From Syntrophorhabdaceae bacterium (lineage in GTDB: Bacteria > Desulfobacterota > Syntrophorhabdia > Syntrophorhabdales > Syntrophorhabdaceae), in assembly GCA_963666485.2 (NCBI GenBank), contig CAXXUO010000001.1, positions 672,001 to 736,000 on the forward strand: a stretch of DNA of 64,000 nucleotides, read 5' to 3'. Below, piece by piece: positions 6,771 to 53,800 of this stretch. A program made the position numbers and the translations under genes. Numbering within the stretch: the first letter of the stretch is position 1; each line of letters opens with the position of its first letter. Below the pieces are notes generated by a model. That model ran no database searches and was not told where the DNA came from. It saw only the letters and a program-made list of their open reading frames with translations.

Positions 6771-6793
6771 GGGGACGTCCTTAAGAAAGTAAG
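6771..6793 (+). repeat. 23-bp RAYT-flanking motif, left-type copy (GGGGACGTCCTTAAGAAAGTAAG)
   Basis: Exact reverse complement at 7936-7958 and 8033-8055; further copies at 31393-31831. Confidence 0.95.
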
Positions 6794-6802
6794 TAGTTGC
6801 TT

Positions 6803-7798
6803 TCAGAAAAGCTTTAAGCCTTTCATTTCGACTACAATCCTACCCCTTTTCACGGCGAGAACAATGGCAGGCGAGGAAACTTCAAAACGTTCAGCAAGGA
6901 CTTTCAAAGAGGCGCCAAGCTCCGTCACTGCGAAAAAGCAAAATACGCTTCTCGCCTCAGTAATTTTCTTGTATCTTCTGCGTGTATTAATATCCGCAGG
7001 CGATATCCCATAAATGTCACATATTCTTTTCTCTATACCCATAATGTCCAAGCCCGACTGTATCAATTCGTATCGCCGGTTCATTTTTTCTTCTGCCCGG
7101 GCGAGCAAATCCCGGACAAATGATTCGTCCCCCATGATACGTCTGTCATCCTTTAGGAATCCTTCCGGGTGTAACCTCCCGTCCTCGTGCCAGACCCCGG
7201 CAGTTCGGGCCCATCCCCCGGTGACTAGATCAGGTCGATGGCCTTGATCGACACCTGATTCGATAAATTTGTCATATGCGATCCGTGGTTTATTTTGAGC
7301 ACCAAATAAGTCGAGAATATACTCGATGTCCTGCCAGGTAACTTTTAGATTACCAAGAATAGTTGCGTGCCCTGACCAGGGAAACAATGCGAGATCTCGA
7401 TATTCTGGAACAATCCCTGCCCTGAGCGGATTAAGATGAATGTACCGCACCAGTTCTTTCAGGTAGGGCTCCTCCTGACAAATGATCGAGCGATAACGGT
7501 TCCGAAAAAGATGTCCTCTGCGAGCATGCCGCCGATTAAAACTCGCCGCATAACCCGTGAGAAGCCGACCCATAAAGGTAGCCAAAGGTACATCCCCCGT
7601 ACGAAGTAATAAATGCGCATGATTCGACAAAAGAACCCATGCATAGCAGACCGTTCCTGTTTCCGGAATAAGAACTGCTAGTCGTTTTGTGAAATCTGTT
7701 CTATCCGTATTATCGAGAAAGATGCTTGTTCCTGCAATTCCACGGATCATTACATGATGGAGCGCTCCTGTAGCATCAAGACGGGGCTGTCGCGGCAT
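6803..7798 (-). mobile_element. REP-associated tyrosine transposase (RAYT; HUH Y1 family) with C-terminal HTH extension
   Basis: MPRQPRL..HHVMIRG, HUH motif SNHAHLL, FNRRHARRGHLFRNRY, catalytic Tyr region VRYIHLNPLRAGIV, FPWSGH; more AT-rich than its neighbours; flanked by an inverted 23-bp motif. Confidence 0.88.
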
Positions 7799-7935
7799 AA
7801 TCACCTCTATTCTGGAATTTATTTTCCTGCCTTTTATGCATATTACTTTTTTCGGGCCAAAATGGGATCGGATTGGAAAAGAATGAAGAAGGGAGACGAT
7901 TTAAGGAACAGCGAAATCAGTGGGTGTGGGGGTTT

Positions 7936-8055
7936 CTTACTTTCTTAAGGACGTCCCCCTGGGCTACTCTTAAGGACGTCCCCCTGGGCTACTCTTAAGG
8001 ACGTCCCCCTGGGCTACTGGGCTCAAAAGTTTCTTACTTTCTTAAGGACGTCCCC
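7936..8055 (-). repeat. Right-type RAYT-flanking motif cluster with a 25-bp tandem triplication
   Basis: Full motif at 7936-7958 and 8033-8055; TCTTAAGGACGTCCCCCTGGGCTAC x3 at 7943-8017. Confidence 0.95.
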
Positions 8056-18265: not shown

Positions 18266-18870
18266 CGTCATTCCGGCGAAGAGACTGTGTCACAATTCCT
18301 CCGACCCCGTCATCCCTTCGCACTCGCCGTCATCCCTTCGCACCCCGCCGTCATCCCTTCGCTCTCGCCGTCATCCCTTCGCTCTCGCCGTCATCCCTTC
18401 GCTCTCGCCGTCATCCCGGCCTCCGAGCCGGGACCCAAGGTTTTTCTTTTGTTCCTTTTAGCAACGACCACATGAGAAAAGAATCATAAAAAACAAAACC
18501 TTGGGTCCCGGCTCGGAGGCCGGGATGACGGAGAGTGCAATTCCTTTTAGCAACGACCACATCAGAAAAGAATCATAAAAAAACAAAACCTTGGGTCCCG
18601 GCTCGGAGGCCGGGATGACGGCGAGTGCAATTCCTTTTAGCAACGACCACATGAGAAAAGAATCATAAAAAACAAAACCTTGGGTCCCGGCTCGGAGGCC
18701 GGGATGACGGCGAGAGCGAAGGGATGACGGCGAGAGCGAAGGGATGACGGCGGGGTGCGAAGGGATGACGGCGAGTGCGCAGGGACGACTGAGAGTGCAA
18801 TATTCCGGAGCATATAAACGTGACCGTCCGGACGATCAGCAGGGAATTGTGACCCAACCTCTGCGCCGGG
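18266..18870. repeat. Composite palindromic REP/MITE-like element
   Basis: 19-bp imperfect terminal inverted repeats at 18281-18299 / 18843-18861; 20-bp tandem units at 18308-18408 mirrored at 18710-18780; REP hairpins at 18409, 18499, 18589, 18678; ~90-bp unit x3. Confidence 0.9.
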
Positions 18871-24225: not shown

Positions 24226-24718
24226 CCCGTTCCGCTTGAGTGCGGTCATCTGTGCCCTCTTTTTATCCCTGTGCGCTGGCGTGTTGTGGACGGGACCGGC
24301 GACCGCCGAGGTAAACGTCTCTATCGGGGTTTTCGCACCCCCGCCCCCGGTGGTCGTAGCCGGTCCGCCCCCCATGACTGTTATGCCGGGCCCCTACTAC
24401 GTGTATTACGCACCCGAAGTTCCGGCCGGACTTTTCTTCTACCAGGGCGCCTGGTGGCGCCCCCATGAAGGTCACTGGTTCAGGGCATATTCATATAAAG
24501 GACCCTGGAGGTACATCGATAATGATCACACGCCTACCCCAATCCTGCGGCTTCCAGCCGATTATCGCCAGGTACCTCCAGGGCATTACAAAGTGACGCA
24601 CGGCCAGATGAAGAAACACTGGAAAGAGTGGGAAAAATCCCGGCGCTGGGACCGGGACCAGGGACCGCGCGGACGCCACGCGGTCGCCGGTCCGTACAGG
24701 GCAGAGGGGCACAGATAA
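24206..24718 (+). CDS. Secreted Pro/aromatic-rich protein
   Basis: Signal peptide ending ATA, VNVSIG, PPPVVV..PP, FFYQGAWW..GHW..GPW. Confidence 0.75.
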   Translation: MISRKNNPFRLSAVICALFLSLCAGVLWTGPATAEVNVSIGVFAPPPPVVVAGPPPMTVMPGPYYVYYAPEVPAGLFFYQGAWWRPHEGHWFRAYSYKGPWRYIDNDHTPTPILRLPADYRQVPPGHYKVTHGQMKKHWKEWEKSRRWDRDQGPRGRHAVAGPYRAEGHR

Positions 24719-25115
24719 CAAAACGGTTCCACGTTCCAGGTTCCACGTTCCACGCTAAAGGATTTCGCTTGGACTATAAAATGGTCCAATCATTAACCGT
24801 TTGTGATCGGGGCGTTGCGTTTCGGTCCGTCTCTTCCGTGGAAACAGATAAAAAACGGTTCCAGGTTCCAGGTTCCACGCTAAAGGACTTCGCTTGGACT
24901 GTAAATGGTCCGATCATTAGGCGTTTGTGATCGGGCCGTTGCGTTTCGGTCCGTCTCTTCCGTGGAAACAGATAAAAAACGGTTCCACGTTCCAGGTTCC
25001 ACGTTCCACGCTAAAGGATTTCGCTTGGACTATAAAATGGTCCAATCATTAACCGTTTGTGATCGGGGCGTTGCGTTTCGGTCCGTCTCTTCCGTGGAAC
25101 GTGGAACGTGGAACG
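24711..25115. repeat. Three tandem ~125-130 bp copies of a TTCCACG-heptamer-flanked element
   Basis: Units start at ~24711, 24844 and 24968; each has a heptamer array, a ~85-bp core and CGTGGAA; the last ends in (CGTGGAA)x3. Confidence 0.95.
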
Positions 25116-25237
25116 GGTCTTTTTACACCGGCCGGGTGTCAAGACTGACAACAGCTGGCTGTCAAGAATGAGGTCGATTCGGAGCGAACGACCGGTCTTG
25201 CTGCCCTGTAATGTATTGAAATTGTTACATCCGCAAC

Positions 25238-27426: not shown

Positions 27427-29337
27427 ATGGAAAGCATACTGCTCAACCGGATATACGGGAAAATAAGGCCGCACCTCGCCGGTCCCGATGATCCATACCT
27501 CGTGGCATCTATCGGGGAACAAAAACTGTACGTGTGTGCCGGGAAGACGGTGACCGGGGTCTACGCGGCGTCAACGTCGCGACTCGGGGTGGGCATCAGG
27601 GAAGATTCACTGAAGACGCCGCCGGGAGTCCACCGGGTATGCGAGAAGATAGGCGCCGATGCGCCCGAGGGCCGTATTTTCAGGGACCGCGAGGACACCG
27701 GGGTAGACTGGGACCACACGTCGGACGAAGAGAACATCATACTGACCCGCATCCTTCGTCTTGAAGGGCTTGAACCGGGCATAAACCGCGGACCTGGTGT
27801 CGATACGTACGAGCGGTATGTCTACATACACGGAACGAACCGGGAGAACGATGTCGGCACGCCGTTTTCCAACGGATGCATATGCCTTCGCAACGCGGAC
27901 ATTGTCTCGTTGTTCGATCTCGTCCCGGAGGGCACGGTCCTTTACATAGACCCTCCGCCCCTCGTGATCAACGGATATCCCCTGAAGAACGTCCATTTTA
28001 CCGGCATCTTCGGGACCGGGATGAGCGCGCTTGCCCAGTACTTGAGGTTCTGCGGGATAGAGGTTTCCGGGTCCGACCGTCTTCTCGCGAGCCCCGATAC
28101 ACAGGAAATGATGGAAAGCCTGAAGCTCCTCGGCTGCGTGATCGCTCACCAGGACGGGTCCGGGGTGACGGAGGGCACGGATGCCCTGTGCATATCGACG
28201 GCGATCGAGGAAACAAACCCCGACATCGCCGCCGCACGCAGCCGCGGTATCCCGATAATTCACCGCTCGGACCTTCTCGCGGGCATAATAGCATCGAAGA
28301 GGACCGTTGCCGTCGCGGGAACGAGCGGGAAATCGACGGTCACCGCCATGATATTCGAATGCCTCGATGCCTGCGGCATGTCCCCGTCGCTCATCAGCGG
28401 GGCGCCCCTCATCAGGCTCGAGGCGGGAGGCCTTATCGGGAACGCCTATTCGGGAGGGTCTGACCTGCTTGTTGTCGAGGCCGATGAAAGCGACGGGACC
28501 CTTGCGAAATACTCGCCGGACATATCGGTGATACTCAACGTCTCGAAGGACCACAAGACGATAGAGGAGATCACCTCCCTTTTCGCCGGCCTTATCGAAC
28601 GGTCGTCGTGGACAGCAACGAACAATGACGACCCGATACTCGCGAACCTTCCGGCAACTGTCCGTTTCGGCAGGAACAGGGCCGCGGCATGGCACCCCGA
28701 CCGGGAAGACCTCCATCCTTTATCGGTGAGCCTCACGCGCTGCGGCATCGAATACCGCCTGCCCGTTCCCGGGGAACATAGCCTCGAGAACCTCAAGGCG
28801 GCCCTGTGCGTGTGCGAGCACCTCGGGTGCGGCGGCGACGCCCTTGCGCGCGCTGTCGGGAATTTCGCCGGGGTCGCGCGCAGGTTCACGATAGTTCACA
28901 CGAAAAGCGGCGTAACAGTTATCGACGACTTCGCCCACAACCCGGCCAAGATCGCGGCCGCCATTACCGCGGCGCACGGCACAGCAGACCGGCTCATCGC
29001 CGCCTATCAGCCCCACGGTTTCGGTCCGACACGGTTTCTCAAGGACGAATACATCGCGTCGTTTCAGAAAATATTCCGCCCCGGCGATGAACTCTACCTT
29101 CTGCCCATTTACTACGCTGGCGGCACCGCGCAAAAAGACATATCCTCTCAGGACATCATCGATGGACTCGGAAAAGTCCCATTCCACGCCGAAGCCGTCA
29201 AAGACCGGGATGAGCTCGTTGAAAAAATAAGTTCGAGCGCCCGGCCCGGCGACTGCGTCATCGTCATGGGCGCCCGCGATCCGTCACTACCGGCCCTCGT
29301 CAGGAAAATAGTTGATATTTTCGGTGGGGAAGAATAG
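27427..29337 (+). CDS. Fusion: YkuD-family L,D-peptidase domain plus MurC/Mpl-like Mur ligase
   Basis: N-terminal KTPPG..YVYIHGT..SNGCICL (YkuD His/Cys); then VHFTGIFGTGMSALA, GTSGKST, EADESDG, DDFAHNP, YQPHG; one uninterrupted ORF. Confidence 0.9.
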   Translation: MESILLNRIYGKIRPHLAGPDDPYLVASIGEQKLYVCAGKTVTGVYAASTSRLGVGIREDSLKTPPGVHRVCEKIGADAPEGRIFRDREDTGVDWDHTSDEENIILTRILRLEGLEPGINRGPGVDTYERYVYIHGTNRENDVGTPFSNGCICLRNADIVSLFDLVPEGTVLYIDPPPLVINGYPLKNVHFTGIFGTGMSALAQYLRFCGIEVSGSDRLLASPDTQEMMESLKLLGCVIAHQDGSGVTEGTDALCISTAIEETNPDIAAARSRGIPIIHRSDLLAGIIASKRTVAVAGTSGKSTVTAMIFECLDACGMSPSLISGAPLIRLEAGGLIGNAYSGGSDLLVVEADESDGTLAKYSPDISVILNVSKDHKTIEEITSLFAGLIERSSWTATNNDDPILANLPATVRFGRNRAAAWHPDREDLHPLSVSLTRCGIEYRLPVPGEHSLENLKAALCVCEHLGCGGDALARAVGNFAGVARRFTIVHTKSGVTVIDDFAHNPAKIAAAITAAHGTADRLIAAYQPHGFGPTRFLKDEYIASFQKIFRPGDELYLLPIYYAGGTAQKDISSQDIIDGLGKVPFHAEAVKDRDELVEKISSSARPGDCVIVMGARDPSLPALVRKIVDIFGGEE

Positions 29338-30698: not shown

Positions 30699-30834
30699 GT
30701 TCCACGTTCCAGGTTCCACGTTCCACGAAAAAACCTTAAAAAAACACCTTAAAAAATCGTATAGCGCGTTTCGCAACAATAAGATTATTTCAGGCTTCTT
30801 TCTCGTGGAACGTGGAACGTGGAACGTGGAACCG
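30699..30834. repeat. Inverted heptamer-array element (TTCCACG / CGTGGAA)
   Basis: Four units at 30699-30727, AT-rich spacer, four inverted units at 30804-30831. Confidence 0.95.
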
Positions 30835-30843
30835 TTTTTTTAT

Positions 30844-31149
30844 CTATTTCGCCTGCCCGTACGTTCCTTTATGGTTGATCATGGGATAGGAAACTTTGGG
30901 GGAATGGGAGGCGCGGTCTTTCATCTTTTCCCGATCAGCCGCGGTAGTGCCGGAGTCATTCTTCTGCGATGCCTTGTTGCTCCTCGCTATATAGTCCTGG
31001 TACCCGGGGTCTGCCGCCGTCCCCGCATACTTATAGTACTCCTTGGGTGTGGTTTTCACAGTTTCAGCCGCGTAACAGAAACCGGTGGAGACGAGGGTTG
31101 CCAGAAGAACTGCTGCGCTCAGGATCCTTTTCATTGTTGTGTCCTCCAT
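30844..31149 (-). CDS. Small secreted hypothetical protein (true start may be the MKRILS ATG)
   Basis: Signal peptide MKRILSAAVLLATLV..CYA. Confidence 0.7.
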   Translation of the reverse strand: MEDTTMKRILSAAVLLATLVSTGFCYAAETVKTTPKEYYKYAGTAADPGYQDYIARSNKASQKNDSGTTAADREKMKDRASHSPKVSYPMINHKGTYGQAK

Positions 31150-31198
31150 GTTTTTTCTTAGTAGGACAAGCGATAAAAGAAAAAGTTCCCTGAAAAAC

Positions 31199-32066
31199 CG
31201 TAGGGCGTGAGAGCGTAAGGCGTAAGGCGTTAAAAGACAAAGACACTGGATTCCGGCAAACCGGAATGACGGTGTTTTTGTTATTTCAGGTATCGGGAAG
31301 TATTGAGTCGGGTGCCATAGTCAACATTTGCGTTGACAACCAGTCTCCCGGTTAAGCTCGTTAAACTGTAAAGGCAAAGGGGACGAGGCAAAGGGGACGT
31401 CCTTAAGAAAGTAAGTAACTTAAGATTACCCGGTCCGGGGATAATAACGACAGGGCGGTCCGTTTAGTTGTTTGAGGAGTTTCTTACTTTCTTAAGGACG
31501 TCCCTCACATTTTTCCGGAAGGTTTGACAATGAATGAGTGGCAGTTGATATCCCTCTGCGATTGGAGTGTCTTACACTGAAACAATCTTAACCGGAAGAC
31601 CGTGACTCTTCATTTATGAGTCTGTAGGAGTAGGGGGACGAGGAGTAGGGGGACGTCCTTAAGAAAGTAAGTAACTTTATCCCTCGATCAATTTAAGCCT
31701 CTTGCCCAACTACCGGATAATCAATTCCGTGATAATTACCCTATGACCGACTCTAAATATTTTGACTTTTCTTACTTTCTTAAGGACGTCCCCCTCGATT
31801 TTCCTTTTCTTACTTTCTTAAGGACGTCCCCCTCGATTTTCATTACACCCGCCGTCATCCCGGGCTTGACCCGGGACCCAAGGTTTTGTTTTTTTGATTC
31901 TTTTCTCATTTGGTCGTTGCTAAAAGGAACAAAAGAAAAACCTTGGGTCCCGGCTCGGAGGCCGGGATGACGGAGAGAGCGAAGGGATGACGGGGTTGGA
32001 GGAATTGCGACACCGTCTCTTCGCGGGAAGACAACAGGGAAATCCCTTTACGCCTTACGCCTTACG
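31199..32066. repeat. Nested intergenic repeat cluster (heptamer arms, REP hairpins, RAYT-motif pairs)
   Basis: CGTAAGG arm at 31199-31230 and inverted arm at 32048-32066; REP at 31239, 31853, 31941; RAYT motif at 31393, 31483, 31649, 31771, 31809. Confidence 0.93.
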
Positions 32067-32070
32067 ATCT

Positions 32071-33417
32071 TTAAATGACCGTCTCTTCCCCCGTTCTCGA
32101 CTCGAATATCCGGTAGTCGTCGTGTACGCGGTCCTGGAGGTAGATGTGATCACCGTTTCTCTTTTTCTTCAGCGCGTCGTACTCGGCGAGGGCGCGCGAT
32201 ACGCAGTCCGGGCAGCAGGCGGCGGGTATCGCGATGCAGTCAACGGAGTAGTTACGGCCGCTCTTGTGCGCACAGCCGGATGATATGCGGCGGAATCCGC
32301 AGCAGGTAGGGCACATCCGCAAGTCAAGCCTCTGCTCTTCCTGCAGATATTCCGTATCGTAAAAGATGCTCCGCGACATGCCCCAGAATTCACGGCCCTC
32401 TTTCCGGTTCTTTTCTACCACCGCAGGCCCGCCGCGAAAGGCGGTTAGCTGGTGGTCGACGAGGGATTTGATATATGTCCAGTTTTTCGGGGATTCCTTG
32501 AACCGTGAGGGGTCATAGTCCGGCTCCTTGAGGTTCGAGAAATCTATTCCGGCCATGGCCATGATGATCCCCATGTTGACATAGGGCAACGCGGTCTCTA
32601 TGGAGTAGCCGCCTTCGAGCACGGCAATATCGGGCTTGAGCTTCTGGTTGAGGACCGCGTAGCCCTGCGCGGTGAAGCTCATGTTTGCGAGCGGGTCACT
32701 GTAATGGTTGTCCTGTCCGGCGGAGTTTATGATGATCTCCGGCTTGAACTCGTCAAGTATCGGCAGGACCAGGTTGTCTATTATGTAATGAATGCCCTCA
32801 TCCGTGGTCCTGGGCGCCATCGGTATGTTGATCGTCGTCCCGTACGCGAGCGGGCCTCCGAGCTCGTCGACAAATCCTGATCCCGGGTAGAGCGTCCGGC
32901 CGTCCTGGTGGAACGAAATGAAGAGAACGTCGGGATCGTGCCAGAATATCTCCTGCGTCCCGTCCCCGTGGTGCACGTCCGTGTCCACGATGGCGAGACG
33001 CTTGACGCCGTACGTGCGGCGCAGGTACTCGACCATGACCGCTTCGTTGTTTATGTCGCAAAACCCCCGGTTTCCGTGAACGACCGTCATGGCATGATGT
33101 CCCGGCGGACGAATGATGGCGAAGGCATTCTTGATCTCTTTTTTCATGTACGCATCGGCCATAACGAGGGCGCAGCCCGCCGACACCATGTGCGCGGTCG
33201 TGACGCGGCTTTCGATGTCGGGAACGCAGAAATGGATGCGCGACACGTCTTTGGGCGTCGCGAGCCGGGGATGGTACTCCGTTATTTCCGGCATGTCCAT
33301 GATGCCTTCCTCGAAAAGCTGGTCGCGCGTATAGAGGAGCCTCTCTTCCCTTTCGGGGTGCGTCGGACTAATGGCCCAGTCAAAGGCGGGGAAAAATATC
33401 AGACCTGTCGTTTTCAA
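32071..33417 (-). CDS. Histone deacetylase-family (Zn-dependent amidohydrolase) protein with Cys-rich C-terminus
   Basis: THPEREER, RPPGHHA, GFC, DTDVHHGDGTQ, YPGSG, SAGQD, LEGGY. Confidence 0.93.
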   Translation of the reverse strand: MKTTGLIFFPAFDWAISPTHPEREERLLYTRDQLFEEGIMDMPEITEYHPRLATPKDVSRIHFCVPDIESRVTTAHMVSAGCALVMADAYMKKEIKNAFAIIRPPGHHAMTVVHGNRGFCDINNEAVMVEYLRRTYGVKRLAIVDTDVHHGDGTQEIFWHDPDVLFISFHQDGRTLYPGSGFVDELGGPLAYGTTINIPMAPRTTDEGIHYIIDNLVLPILDEFKPEIIINSAGQDNHYSDPLANMSFTAQGYAVLNQKLKPDIAVLEGGYSIETALPYVNMGIIMAMAGIDFSNLKEPDYDPSRFKESPKNWTYIKSLVDHQLTAFRGGPAVVEKNRKEGREFWGMSRSIFYDTEYLQEEQRLDLRMCPTCCGFRRISSGCAHKSGRNYSVDCIAIPAACCPDCVSRALAEYDALKKKRNGDHIYLQDRVHDDYRIFESRTGEETVI

Positions 33418-40470: not shown

Positions 40471-40878
40471 ATGCACGATCCCGATTATCTGCCTGTTGCG
40501 GCTGCGGTCATTGAAAAGGACGGCCGGGTCCTGATCGCCCGCAGAAAACGCGCGTACATGGGATATTACTGGGAGTTCCCCGGGGGAAAGCTCATGGACA
40601 ATGAAACTCTCGAGGAATGCCTGAAACGCGCAATTCTTGAGCAGCTGGGGATAACGATCTCCGTGGGCGACCTCATTTCATCGCGAAAGCACGCGATAAA
40701 CTGCCAGGCCGCAGTCCTTCTCTACGCATATCGTTCTGCCTGGGTATCGGGCAACGTCACCCTCACTGACCACGACGAGATAGCGTGGGTCAAGCCTGAA
40801 GACCTGACCAAATACACCTTCCCCGACCCGGACCAGCAGATAGTCCGCGAATTGCTAAAGAACGGTTCTACGTTCTAG
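40471..40878 (+). CDS. MutT-like NUDIX hydrolase with a degenerate Nudix box
   Basis: VAAAVIEKDGRVLIARR, WEFPGGK..ETLEECLKRAILEQLG, DHDEIAWV. Confidence 0.85.
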   Translation: MHDPDYLPVAAAVIEKDGRVLIARRKRAYMGYYWEFPGGKLMDNETLEECLKRAILEQLGITISVGDLISSRKHAINCQAAVLLYAYRSAWVSGNVTLTDHDEIAWVKPEDLTKYTFPDPDQQIVRELLKNGSTF

Positions 40879-40954
40879 GTTCTACGTTCTACGTTGAAAA
40901 AAACGAGAGTTTTCTTGTCTTTAACGTAGAACGTAGAACGTAGAACGTAGAACG
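40864..40954. repeat. Inverted heptamer-array element (TTCTACG / CGTAGAA)
   Basis: Four units at 40865-40895, short spacer, four inverted units at 40923-40954; supplies the NUDIX stop codon. Confidence 0.95.
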
Positions 40955-41003
40955 ATTTTTATAACCGCTTGCCTAAGCACCTGATTTTTTATACAATTGA
41001 ACC

Positions 41004-53027: not shown

Positions 53028-53136
53028 ATTGAAGTTAAGTTAAACAACCCCGACCCAAGAGAATGTGCCGCCGGTCACCCCATTTAATTTTCTCAACGTG
53101 TCCTGACAGATGAGAACCTTTGCAAGGGGGTAGAAG

Positions 53137-53178
53137 CCTTACGCCTTACGCCTTACGCCTTACGCCTTACGCCTTACG
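53137..53178. repeat. (CCTTACG)x6 heptamer array abutting the ATPase D stop codon
   Basis: Six exact units; on the minus strand it reads CGTAAGG right after TAA, as at gatB. Confidence 0.95.
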
Positions 53179-53179
53179 A

Positions 53180-53800
53180 TTACGTTGCCAGCCTGTCGCG
53201 GATCATCTTCAGAATGATGAGCGATTCGCGCTCCCTTTCTTCCAGGGAGCCCGTGATGTATTCGATCGTTTCCTGGTACTGAGGTATGAATATCTTGGAA
53301 AGGGCGTTCGTTCGCCTTTGGGTGCGGCGCAATTCCCGTGCGAGGCGCATGACCGCGTTCTCGAGTTCCGCAAGGTCGGCGAGAAGCGGCAGGACGTCGA
53401 CGAATTTGGCCATGGTGATATCCGTGTTCGATGACGTTCCCCCGACGCCGAACCGAACGCCCATCGGCTCGGCCCTGACGCTCACCCTGGGCACGCCCAT
53501 GCCCATCAGCCGGTCATCGGTCATTTCTATATCGTGCTTCATTGAAACGCCGAGTGTCGCCCGGTCGATCGCCTCAGAGCCGATGTCGAGCGTCGCCTCC
53601 CTGAGTGCCTCGAAGGCCTGCCGCAGCGCCTCGGCCACCCGTTTTTCCGCTTCCTCCGCCCGGTTAAGGCGGCTCATGAGCTCAAATATGAGGATCTGCC
53701 GCTTCTGCTCGAGAAGGTCGTACCCCTCCTGGGCAAAATCGAGCTGCCTCTCGAGGTTCAGGAGATTTGATTTCGTCGGTGCAACGTTGAGTTTCGCCAT
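53180..53800 (-). CDS. V/A-type ATP synthase subunit D
   Basis: NVAPTKSNLL..AQEGYDLLEQKR; RTQRRTNAL..IFIP; LEERERE. Confidence 0.93.
   Translation of the reverse strand: MAKLNVAPTKSNLLNLERQLDFAQEGYDLLEQKRQILIFELMSRLNRAEEAEKRVAEALRQAFEALREATLDIGSEAIDRATLGVSMKHDIEMTDDRLMGMGVPRVSVRAEPMGVRFGVGGTSSNTDITMAKFVDVLPLLADLAELENAVMRLARELRRTQRRTNALSKIFIPQYQETIEYITGSLEERERESLIILKMIRDRLAT

Follow-up and report, generated by a model that had tools for sequence, protein, structure and literature searches.

The window analysed here, a stretch of 64,000 nucleotides, corresponds to C1:672001-736000 of a 3.77 Mb genome in 10 contigs (labelled G000). It contains a Y1/HUH tyrosine transposase gene with its terminal inverted repeats (TIRs) and, about 23 kb away, an intergenic region between two host genes that carries further copies of the same 23-bp motif. 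The coordinates are collected in Table 1.

Table 1. Features of the transposase locus and of the mini-element region (window coordinates).
Feature	Position	Strand	Description
TIR, 3′ end of TIRtron	6771..6793	+	exact motif
TIRYT gene	6803..7798	-	331 aa, open frame; Y1/HUH core (NHAH, YIHLNP) and C-terminal DnaA-like HTH
TIR region, 5′ end of TIRtron	7936..8055	-	TIR (7936-7958), 25-bp tandem end-duplications (to 8018), co-oriented TIR (8033-8055)
Left host gene	30844..31149	-	101 aa, no Pfam match; conserved in genus
IS481-derived MITE enclosing A	31313..31627	+	full form 329 bp; last 27 bp (right TIR) replaced by B
IS481 end remnant, transposase-downstream side	31313..31370	+	includes outer left TIR (31313-31340); 82-88% to G005 and G014 elements
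Scar left of A	31372..31392	+	7-nt outside tail and first 7 nt of TIR, then tail again; period 14
Mini-element A	31393..31505	+	TIR 31393-31415 (conserved to ~31420), interior 31416-31482, inverted TIR 31483-31505
Segment within outer MITE	31506..31561	+	right tail of A and ~45 nt without traced source; 9 genome copies
IS481 end remnant, transposase-upstream side	31562..31627	+	79-83% to ends in G003, G005, G006, G011, G014, G015, G017, G018
Scar left of B	31626..31648	+	8-nt tail and 7 nt of TIR, followed by a second tail copy; period 15; shares 2 nt with truncated IS481 arm
Mini-element B	31649..31793	+	TIR 31649-31671, interior 31672-31770, inverted TIR 31771-31793
Scar right of B	31794..31841	-	10-nt tail, then 38-bp duplicate (10 nt outside and 28 nt of TIR); period 38
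Right host gene, histone-deacetylase family	32071..33417	-	elements sit 3′ of its stop codon

The flanking host gene was present in 13 of 19 relatives from the genus, 12 of them with the same neighbour, and the intergenic gap measured about 90-390 nt in those 12 relatives versus 925 nt in G000. No TIR or MITE match was found in that gap in any of the 12 genomes with the same gene order. The reading of the mini-elements at 31313-31841 as lineage-specific insertions is supported. An Rfam search of 31000-32100 gave no family at the gathering score; eight sub-threshold matches were obtained, seven over neighbouring palindromes and one over B (E 0.33). The promoter scan returned no sites, and the terminator scan returned one (1.4 expected).

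Other repeats and genes were also noted in the window. Tandem heptamer runs form inverted pairs around intergenic gaps (372-453, 24713-25123, 30798-30845, 31208-31230, 32048-32068, 40855-40962, 53136-53181); the heptamers of relatives differ from those of the window in the same syntenic gap, and they look like a separate repeat system. G+C-rich palindromic repeats with a CGTC-like end (31853-31996 and 18271-18798) have more than 100 BLAST matches genome-wide and resemble the CGTC-tagged REPs of PMC3733652; several TIR elements lie in or beside such palindromes. At 27427-29337 (+) there is a gene for a 636-aa protein with an L,D-transpeptidase (YkuD) domain fused to Mur ligase domains.

A Hamming scan of the 3.77 Mb genome found 35 exact and five one-mismatch copies of the 23-bp motif, 40 in total, while three block-shuffled genomes contained no match with up to four mismatches, so the real count is far above chance. 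The positions given in the first-pass annotation were reproduced as exact 23-mers at 31393-31415 (+), 31649-31671 (+), 31771-31793 (-) and 31809-31831 (-); the copy at 31483-31504 (-) is exact as a 22-mer and has one mismatch, at 31505, as a 23-mer. The sizes were also correct: elements of 112/113 and 145 bp, separated by 144 bp, with interiors of 67 and 99 bp. The same holds for the sharing of the motif with the TIRs flanking the Y1 gene (6771-6793, an exact copy, and 7936-7958) and for the polarity of the ends, which matches that at the gene (6771-6793 +, 7936-7958 -). Two partial motif copies, at 31379-31385 and 31634-31640, had been missed, as had the outer IS481-derived element at 31313-31627, and the conserved TIR end reaches about 5 nt further inward than the 23-bp motif then defined. 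The fifth motif (31809-31831) is a 38-bp tandem duplicate of the fourth (31771-31793). The region had been described as a repeat-spacer array; we found instead two adjacent or nested MITEs with end-duplication scars, and the IS481-derived MITE enclosing A, followed by B and the three scars, accounts for the array-like look of 31313-31841.

Tyrosine transposase genes flanked by long TIRs, with moderately abundant TIR families occurring as singles, dimers and groups, were described by Di Nocera et al. in 2013 (PMC3733652, in the portion used here). In the corresponding portion of Quentin et al. 2018 (PMC6006769), no REPs were found near proteins of subclass 2.1, subgroup 2.1.2, and these are equated with TIRYTs; with 14.9% of the sample, subclass 2.1 ranks second in size among the Y1 subclasses. 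The portion of Bertels et al. 2017 (PMC5581495) used here presents RAYT group 1 as the most IS-like one apart from group 6, with moderately frequent flanking 16-mers. Judging from its sequence, the enzyme at 6803-7798 is a TIRYT of TnpA-Y1 subclass 2.1.2, within what those parts of PMC3733652 and PMC6006769 set out. Its motifs NHAH and YIHLNP, read off tblastn output, agree with the subclass 2.1 signature (NHxH, Y[IV]HLNP) as tabulated in the part of PMC6006769 used (table 1 there). The protein scored 27.1 bits with Pfam Y1_Tnp (cut-off 23), and residues 257-310 matched Bac_DnaA_C with 30 bits (E 5e-7), just below the cut-off of 31.5; a weak PDB match to DnaA was also seen (E 0.1). An HTH of the Bac_DnaA_C/HTH_23/HTH_28 type is thus placed at the C-terminus. 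The score with NCBIfam REP_Tyr_transpos (NF047646) was 52.6 bits, below the cut-off of 80. The gene is flanked by long terminal inverted repeats without REP hairpins, and the dispersed TIR family includes singles, dimers and groups (40 copies, with 15 dimers and scars). Of the eight positions of the published TIRYT consensus GGGGWSAS, with which some or most but not all published TIRs begin, the first six fit the TIR and the last two differ.

Another TIRYT, 46% identical and accompanied by a TIR variant of its own, is encoded at C2:655343-656329. It lies in a region (C2:650718-659192, L234) with a cluster of eight TIR-like sites; there, 890 nt of unique DNA with a 161-aa ORF is enclosed by two stubs that have a 6-nt tail and about 160 nt (91%) in common. 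A third TIR variant forms a dimer with a 7-nt interior and a scar at C1:317591-317693, and five TIR stubs cluster at C1:191244-197481, where no TIRYT gene was found.

The interiors of A and B did not align with each other (shuffle p 0.19-0.20) or with the TIRtron interior, as had been stated. They had also been called unique cargo, a description that the genome contradicts: blastn found 11 full copies and one partial copy of interior A (91-100% identical to the window copy), three copies of interior B (91-100%) and nine copies of the supposed gap 31505-31625 (93-100%), which forms the right-hand part of the outer IS481-derived MITE. The A copies are 85-100% identical pairwise and none lies inside an ORF of at least 150 aa; the B copies are 91-93% identical pairwise and carry related tails of 7-9 nt. 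All 15 dimers of the genome lie outside ORFs of at least 150 aa. Dimer C (C2:639254-639357) is single-copy, and its interior aligns end to end with that of A (32 of 49 columns matched; p 0.001 from 1000 mononucleotide shuffles, as the best of six comparisons), a result that points to a common ancestor of A and C. The idea that the interiors are diverged copies of one ancestral spacer therefore holds for A and C, and for ten elements in the relatives G028 and G088, and was not shown for A versus B. The left/right polarity, checked across the genome, was seen in 13 of the 15 dimers and does not extend to relatives, whose elements have symmetric or reversed ends; for this reason the asymmetry looks inherited from the two ends of a parent.

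Only the paired ends fold: the complete unit forms a long hairpin (z -7.5 and -5.9), while a single TIR folds no better than its shuffles (z -0.77) and the interiors show no self-complementarity (z +0.6). It is therefore likelier that the HTH recognises the sequence of the TIR than that a hairpin is recognised. The stretch is present in four contig sets of one sample, and no RNA run was listed with it. The read data yielded no credible joint of an excision, with no raw reads placed on the stretch. In two of these sets, word depth over the core of A was 17-24 versus 2.4-3.9 in the flanks (about sevenfold), which fits many A copies, with the provisos that depth is not copy number and that this is possibly the source sample. 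In a second study, a relative about 91% identical was found at both flanking genes, with zero depth over the A core or B, which does not amount to proof that either is absent from it.

Mini-element A lies inside a larger element. The outer MITE of the window is 94.6% identical to a full copy at G000 C1:1098245-1098573. Its TIRs are 28 bp long and imperfect (22 of 28 positions matched), and 7-bp target duplications were found at two of the three two-ended copies. Imperfect TIRs and short target duplications of such lengths are typical of IS481. The first 58 nt and the last ~90 nt of the 329-bp form are 79-88% identical to element ends in relatives; the IS481 element of G005 is complete and encodes a 351-aa transposase (NF033577, 245 bits, cut-off 224). 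No IS481 transposase was found in the G000 assembly by tblastn or NF033577, so the helper of the outer MITE is either missing, having perhaps been lost, or unassembled. The outer element resembles an IS481-family MITE in keeping both IS481 ends and differs in that its middle holds a mini-element of an unrelated transposase family and that its helper was not found in the assembly. The segment 31506-31561 gave nothing better than E 0.017 against 95 other genomes of the order. An IS481 arm is retained by 9 of the 11 A copies, and A would travel mostly within the 329-bp MITE; B was probably inserted in or beside this MITE at the present locus, with loss of the right MITE end.

Relatives of the outer element occur elsewhere in G000. 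Short MITEs (113-123 bp) with the same ends, another interior and no TIR core were found at C2:70000-70122 and C8:128267-128379, and single IS481 MITE ends at C4:31282, C2:37703 and C1:89113. Another, separate repeat, of about 170 bp (C2:647000-647175), has many copies across contigs at 88-95% identity.

Tandem end-duplications like those beside A and B were found upstream of the TIR in 24 of 177 distinct contexts, 11 in G000 and 13 elsewhere, versus 71 of 20000 random positions; these counts include kin genomes, which are not independent of one another. The test requires at least three shared outside bases and misses duplications that start at the TIR edge. In 23 of the 24 scars the outer breakpoint is compatible with a position 6-11 nt outside the TIR, most commonly 7, and the inner end varies from 6 to 61 nt. 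The mirror test gave ten matches, nine of which were outer copies of events already counted. Two long duplications, of 513 and 539 nt, share tails of 10 and 12 nt. By inspection, no conserved dinucleotide marks the breakpoints. Replication slippage at the G run could lie behind some of the short scars. Tails are likewise preserved among independent A copies: on the left side, 7 of 11 end about 9-16 nt beyond the TIR, and on the right side, 2 of 11 end 10-11 nt beyond it. Four of the seven one-ended A copies are flanked by direct repeats of 20-102 bp, for which one more event has to be assumed, for instance a duplication after which the intact MITE was excised.

The enzyme and its repeats are widespread among relatives. 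A TIRYT homologue (E 1e-20 or better) was found in 42 of 60 relatives, with its own TIR variant at many of the 24 other homologue loci listed, and the degenerate TIR pattern occurs in 33 of 68 genomes. The question of whether the motif occurs in genomes lacking the enzyme has a divided answer: the near-exact motif was always accompanied by a TIRYT (three of 60 relatives, 62-63% identity), and looser TIRs were present in five genomes where this TIRYT query matched nothing. In several relatives the 5′ TIR directly precedes a -35-like box. A search of 36 stretches picked for TIR matches gave 21 inward TIR pairs, ten of which (G028 and G088) form one diverging family with symmetric ends (45 of 45 pairs align, z at least 6). 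When interiors were compared with panels of TIRtron ends (28 and 29 sequences), three of 22 proved to be clear internal deletions (G001, G007 and G017; z 9.5-14.6), consisting of TIRtron 5′-leader and/or gene 3′-end sequence, and two were marginal. The interiors of A, B and C were not above the null in these panels (z at most 1.3); a resemblance of B to the TIRYT gene ends, noticed by eye, was not supported by the panel test.

Several loci in relatives deserve a separate record. Tandem partial copies of the TIRYT gene, starting from the TIR end, were seen at G058 C15:268616-270602 (L200), G056 C76:56903-58425 (L203) and G055 C251 (L216), and represent the same scar type on a scale of 0.4-0.6 kb. 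At L204, L208, L226 and L228 (G088, G028, G092 and G090), TIRtrons of differing subtype and orientation adjoin the same 606-aa glutamine amidotransferase/SIS gene and its neighbours, which suggests that this site is a long-lived TIRtron hot spot. At G014 C61:25476-28838 (L094), inward TIRs surround a gene for a 910-aa PAS histidine kinase; one of these TIRs carries a TIRYT 3′-end fragment, and no full TIRYT was found in G014.

Based on the above results, the assignment of A and B to the TIRtron at 6771-7958 as its non-autonomous TIR dimers is supported by the shared ends. We consider it very probable that they are MITE-like dimers of this TIRtron, with one founder per family that was recopied together with its interior and 7-11 nt tails. 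The first-pass annotation had raised the possibility of a system that captures or reshuffles short foreign sequences between paired TIRs, with a unique spacer in each unit. The interiors of A and B are indeed unrelated and without an identified source, several interior families coexist in one genome, and a few scars in relatives (G011, G088) hold 6-30 nt of unexplained DNA between duplicated TIRs. Nevertheless, capture is highly improbable, and at this locus it is contradicted by the multi-copy interiors (11 and 3 copies); A and C share an ancestor, the ten G028/G088 elements are one diverging family, and wherever an origin can be read, the source is the TIRtron itself. The proposed BLAST of the interiors against host, phage and plasmid sequences found genome copies and no foreign origin: blastn searches of phages and plasmids with the whole region (E 1) and with each interior (E 10) gave a single 19-nt plasmid match at E 10, in databases that may omit records very near the genome of the window, and this is not a credible source. 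A motif scan gave no hits in viral contigs and two single TIRs without dimers in metagenome contigs. Against the 95 other genomes of the order, the interiors and the gap gave only matches of 17-27 nt (E 0.003-0.044), and no comparison of the interiors with IS481 internal sequence exceeded the shuffle maximum. A milder version, in which each founder of A and B arose once when two TIRs landed on either side of host intergenic DNA and then spread as an ordinary MITE, is a less likely but serious contender. It would agree with the lack of any link between A, B or C and the TIRtron ends and with the abundance of one-ended TIR stubs in these genomes, which makes chance pairing possible. However, no host source was found in the genome or in the 95 others of the order (best E 0.003-0.04 over 20-27 nt), and the conserved pairing of a 3′-type with a 5′-type end, seen in 13 of 15 dimers, agrees with an origin from a single TIRtron.

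It is also conceivable that the copies were mainly spread by IS481 transposase, with A as a passenger, and by recombination, that the TIRYT is only a site-bound regulator or inactive on them, and that the scars are slippage products. The IS481 arms of 9 of 11 A copies and the 7-bp target duplications at two of three two-ended copies point in this direction, and the -35-like box directly after the 5′ TIR in several relatives fits autoregulation. We regard this explanation as improbable: B and C have no IS481 arms, two A copies lack both arms and have their boundaries 10-11 nt beyond each TIR, and scars of up to 539 nt occur at a fixed offset outside the TIR, with differing flanks and in many genomes, nine of the ten mirror-test matches being outer copies of the same events. 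Classical REPINs of a group 2/3 RAYT share with A and B the two inverted repeats with a spacer, the single-copy enzyme, the intergenic position and the folding of the whole unit (z -7.5, -5.9). This identity is nonetheless the least likely of all, for no palindromic REP with a GTAG tag is present, one repeat alone does not fold, the interiors are not self-complementary (z +0.6), and the enzyme has an HTH tail and the signature of subclass 2.1, for which PMC6006769 found no REPs. Membership in REPINs or in RAYT groups 2-3 was rejected on the missing GTAG tag and monomer hairpin, the NF047646 score below cut-off and the length of 331 aa with an HTH tail. The earlier label of REPIN-like non-autonomous units stands insofar as these are non-autonomous two-ended units sharing ends with a Y1 gene; they are not REPINs. 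The 15 dimers do show the inverted intergenic doublet as the replicated unit, and are REPIN-like in their working. Finally, the TIRYT might act as a "duplicate-and-insert" integrase, the co-oriented stubs being HUH recombination sites with anything from a few bases to whole genes inserted between a stub and the next TIR. This reading does not bear on interiors A and B, and we give it little credence. Co-oriented stubs do separate toxin-antitoxin or other accessory genes near TIRYT genes (G005, G007, G013 and G000 C2:650718-653748), and of 36 co-oriented TIR pairs whose members are separated by 20 nt or more of other DNA, 11 share tails (a test that 7% of random tail pairs pass), 14 share the stub beyond the TIR and five share both. 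Pile-up in variable islands also explains this pattern. A TIR lay near 5 of 30 DUF2283 loci, two of which had given rise to the test in the first place; among 42 control loci there was one such case. With 25 of 30 DUF2283 loci having no TIR nearby, an integron-like cassette rule was not supported as a general one, and no cassette was shown to occupy two sites.

For the mini-element copies we suggest, with somewhat better than even confidence, a TIRYT-driven mechanism of nicking, extension and rejoining at the TIRs, deduced from the arrangement of sequences. HUH enzymes leave a 5′-phosphotyrosine and a 3′-OH that is able to prime synthesis or attack the link (PMC8266576, in the part used), and the amplification of REP/BIME units has been modelled in the same way, as nicking, extension and rejoining (PMC3333891, legend of Fig. 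7B). The TIRYT would bind the TIR as a sequence, probably via its HTH. One strand would then be nicked on the 5′ side of the G run, about 7 nt (6-11) away and with no fixed dinucleotide as the cleavage site, a position predicted from the outer breakpoints of the scars at 6-11 nt. The TIR side may be held as a 5′-phosphotyrosine while host polymerase extends the free 3′-OH, after which the held end would be rejoined to a 3′-OH. Rejoining nearby would produce tandem scars, and rejoining elsewhere one-ended copies, adjacent deletions and new loci. The asymmetry of left and right ends would come from the two parental ends. For the founders, internal deletion of a TIRtron and later decay is the most likely origin, shown for three elements in relatives and presumed for A and B.

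The first-pass annotation had marked the array as a candidate for an undescribed system, a view that was not upheld, as the enzyme and TIR-family design was described in 2013 as TIRtron/TIRYT (PMC3733652, in the portion used here). The present elements share with that description the Y1/HUH gene with its Y-x-x-x-NP signature, the DnaA-like HTH, the long G-run-led TIRs instead of REPs, and a moderately abundant TIR family of singles, dimers and groups. They differ from it, within the portion of the published account used, in their conserved interiors, 7-11 nt tails, anchored end-duplications and nesting in an IS481 MITE. REPINs and BIMEs of group 2 and 3 RAYTs (TnpA-REP) are similar in being non-autonomous inverted doublets for which a single-copy HUH enzyme provides mobility in trans, and their local tandem amplification is likewise modelled as nicking, 3′-OH extension and strand transfer (PMC3116915, PMC3333891, PMC8266576, in the parts used). 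The difference is that the elements described here have no GTAG tag or REP hairpin and number 40 copies rather than hundreds. According to the same parts, cleavage by REP enzymes takes place at defined dinucleotides (CT, CA), whereas inspection of the present breakpoints revealed no dinucleotide in common. The resemblance to CRISPR or integron cassette arrays is limited to a superficial repeat-spacer look: the repeats here alternate in orientation, and the spacers are multi-copy and without a foreign match. A spacer-capture array was rejected accordingly, there being no unique, outside-sourced spacers between co-oriented repeats. In the literature searched, which included few subscription papers, we found no biochemical study of subclass 2.1 and no description of anchored scars or IS481 nesting.

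It should be noted that the locus is modest as a discovery, being a clean example of the mini-elements of TIRtrons, a class named in 2013. It shows a mini-element riding within a MITE of an unrelated DDE family. An intact enzyme and its TIR are available from this genome, along with three natural substrates and a numeric value predicted for the nick, 6-11 nt outside the TIR. Such a nick, without a fixed dinucleotide, would depart from the guide-sequence rule that IS200/IS605 and REP enzymes follow, and the chief value of the locus is this testable prediction of cleavage.
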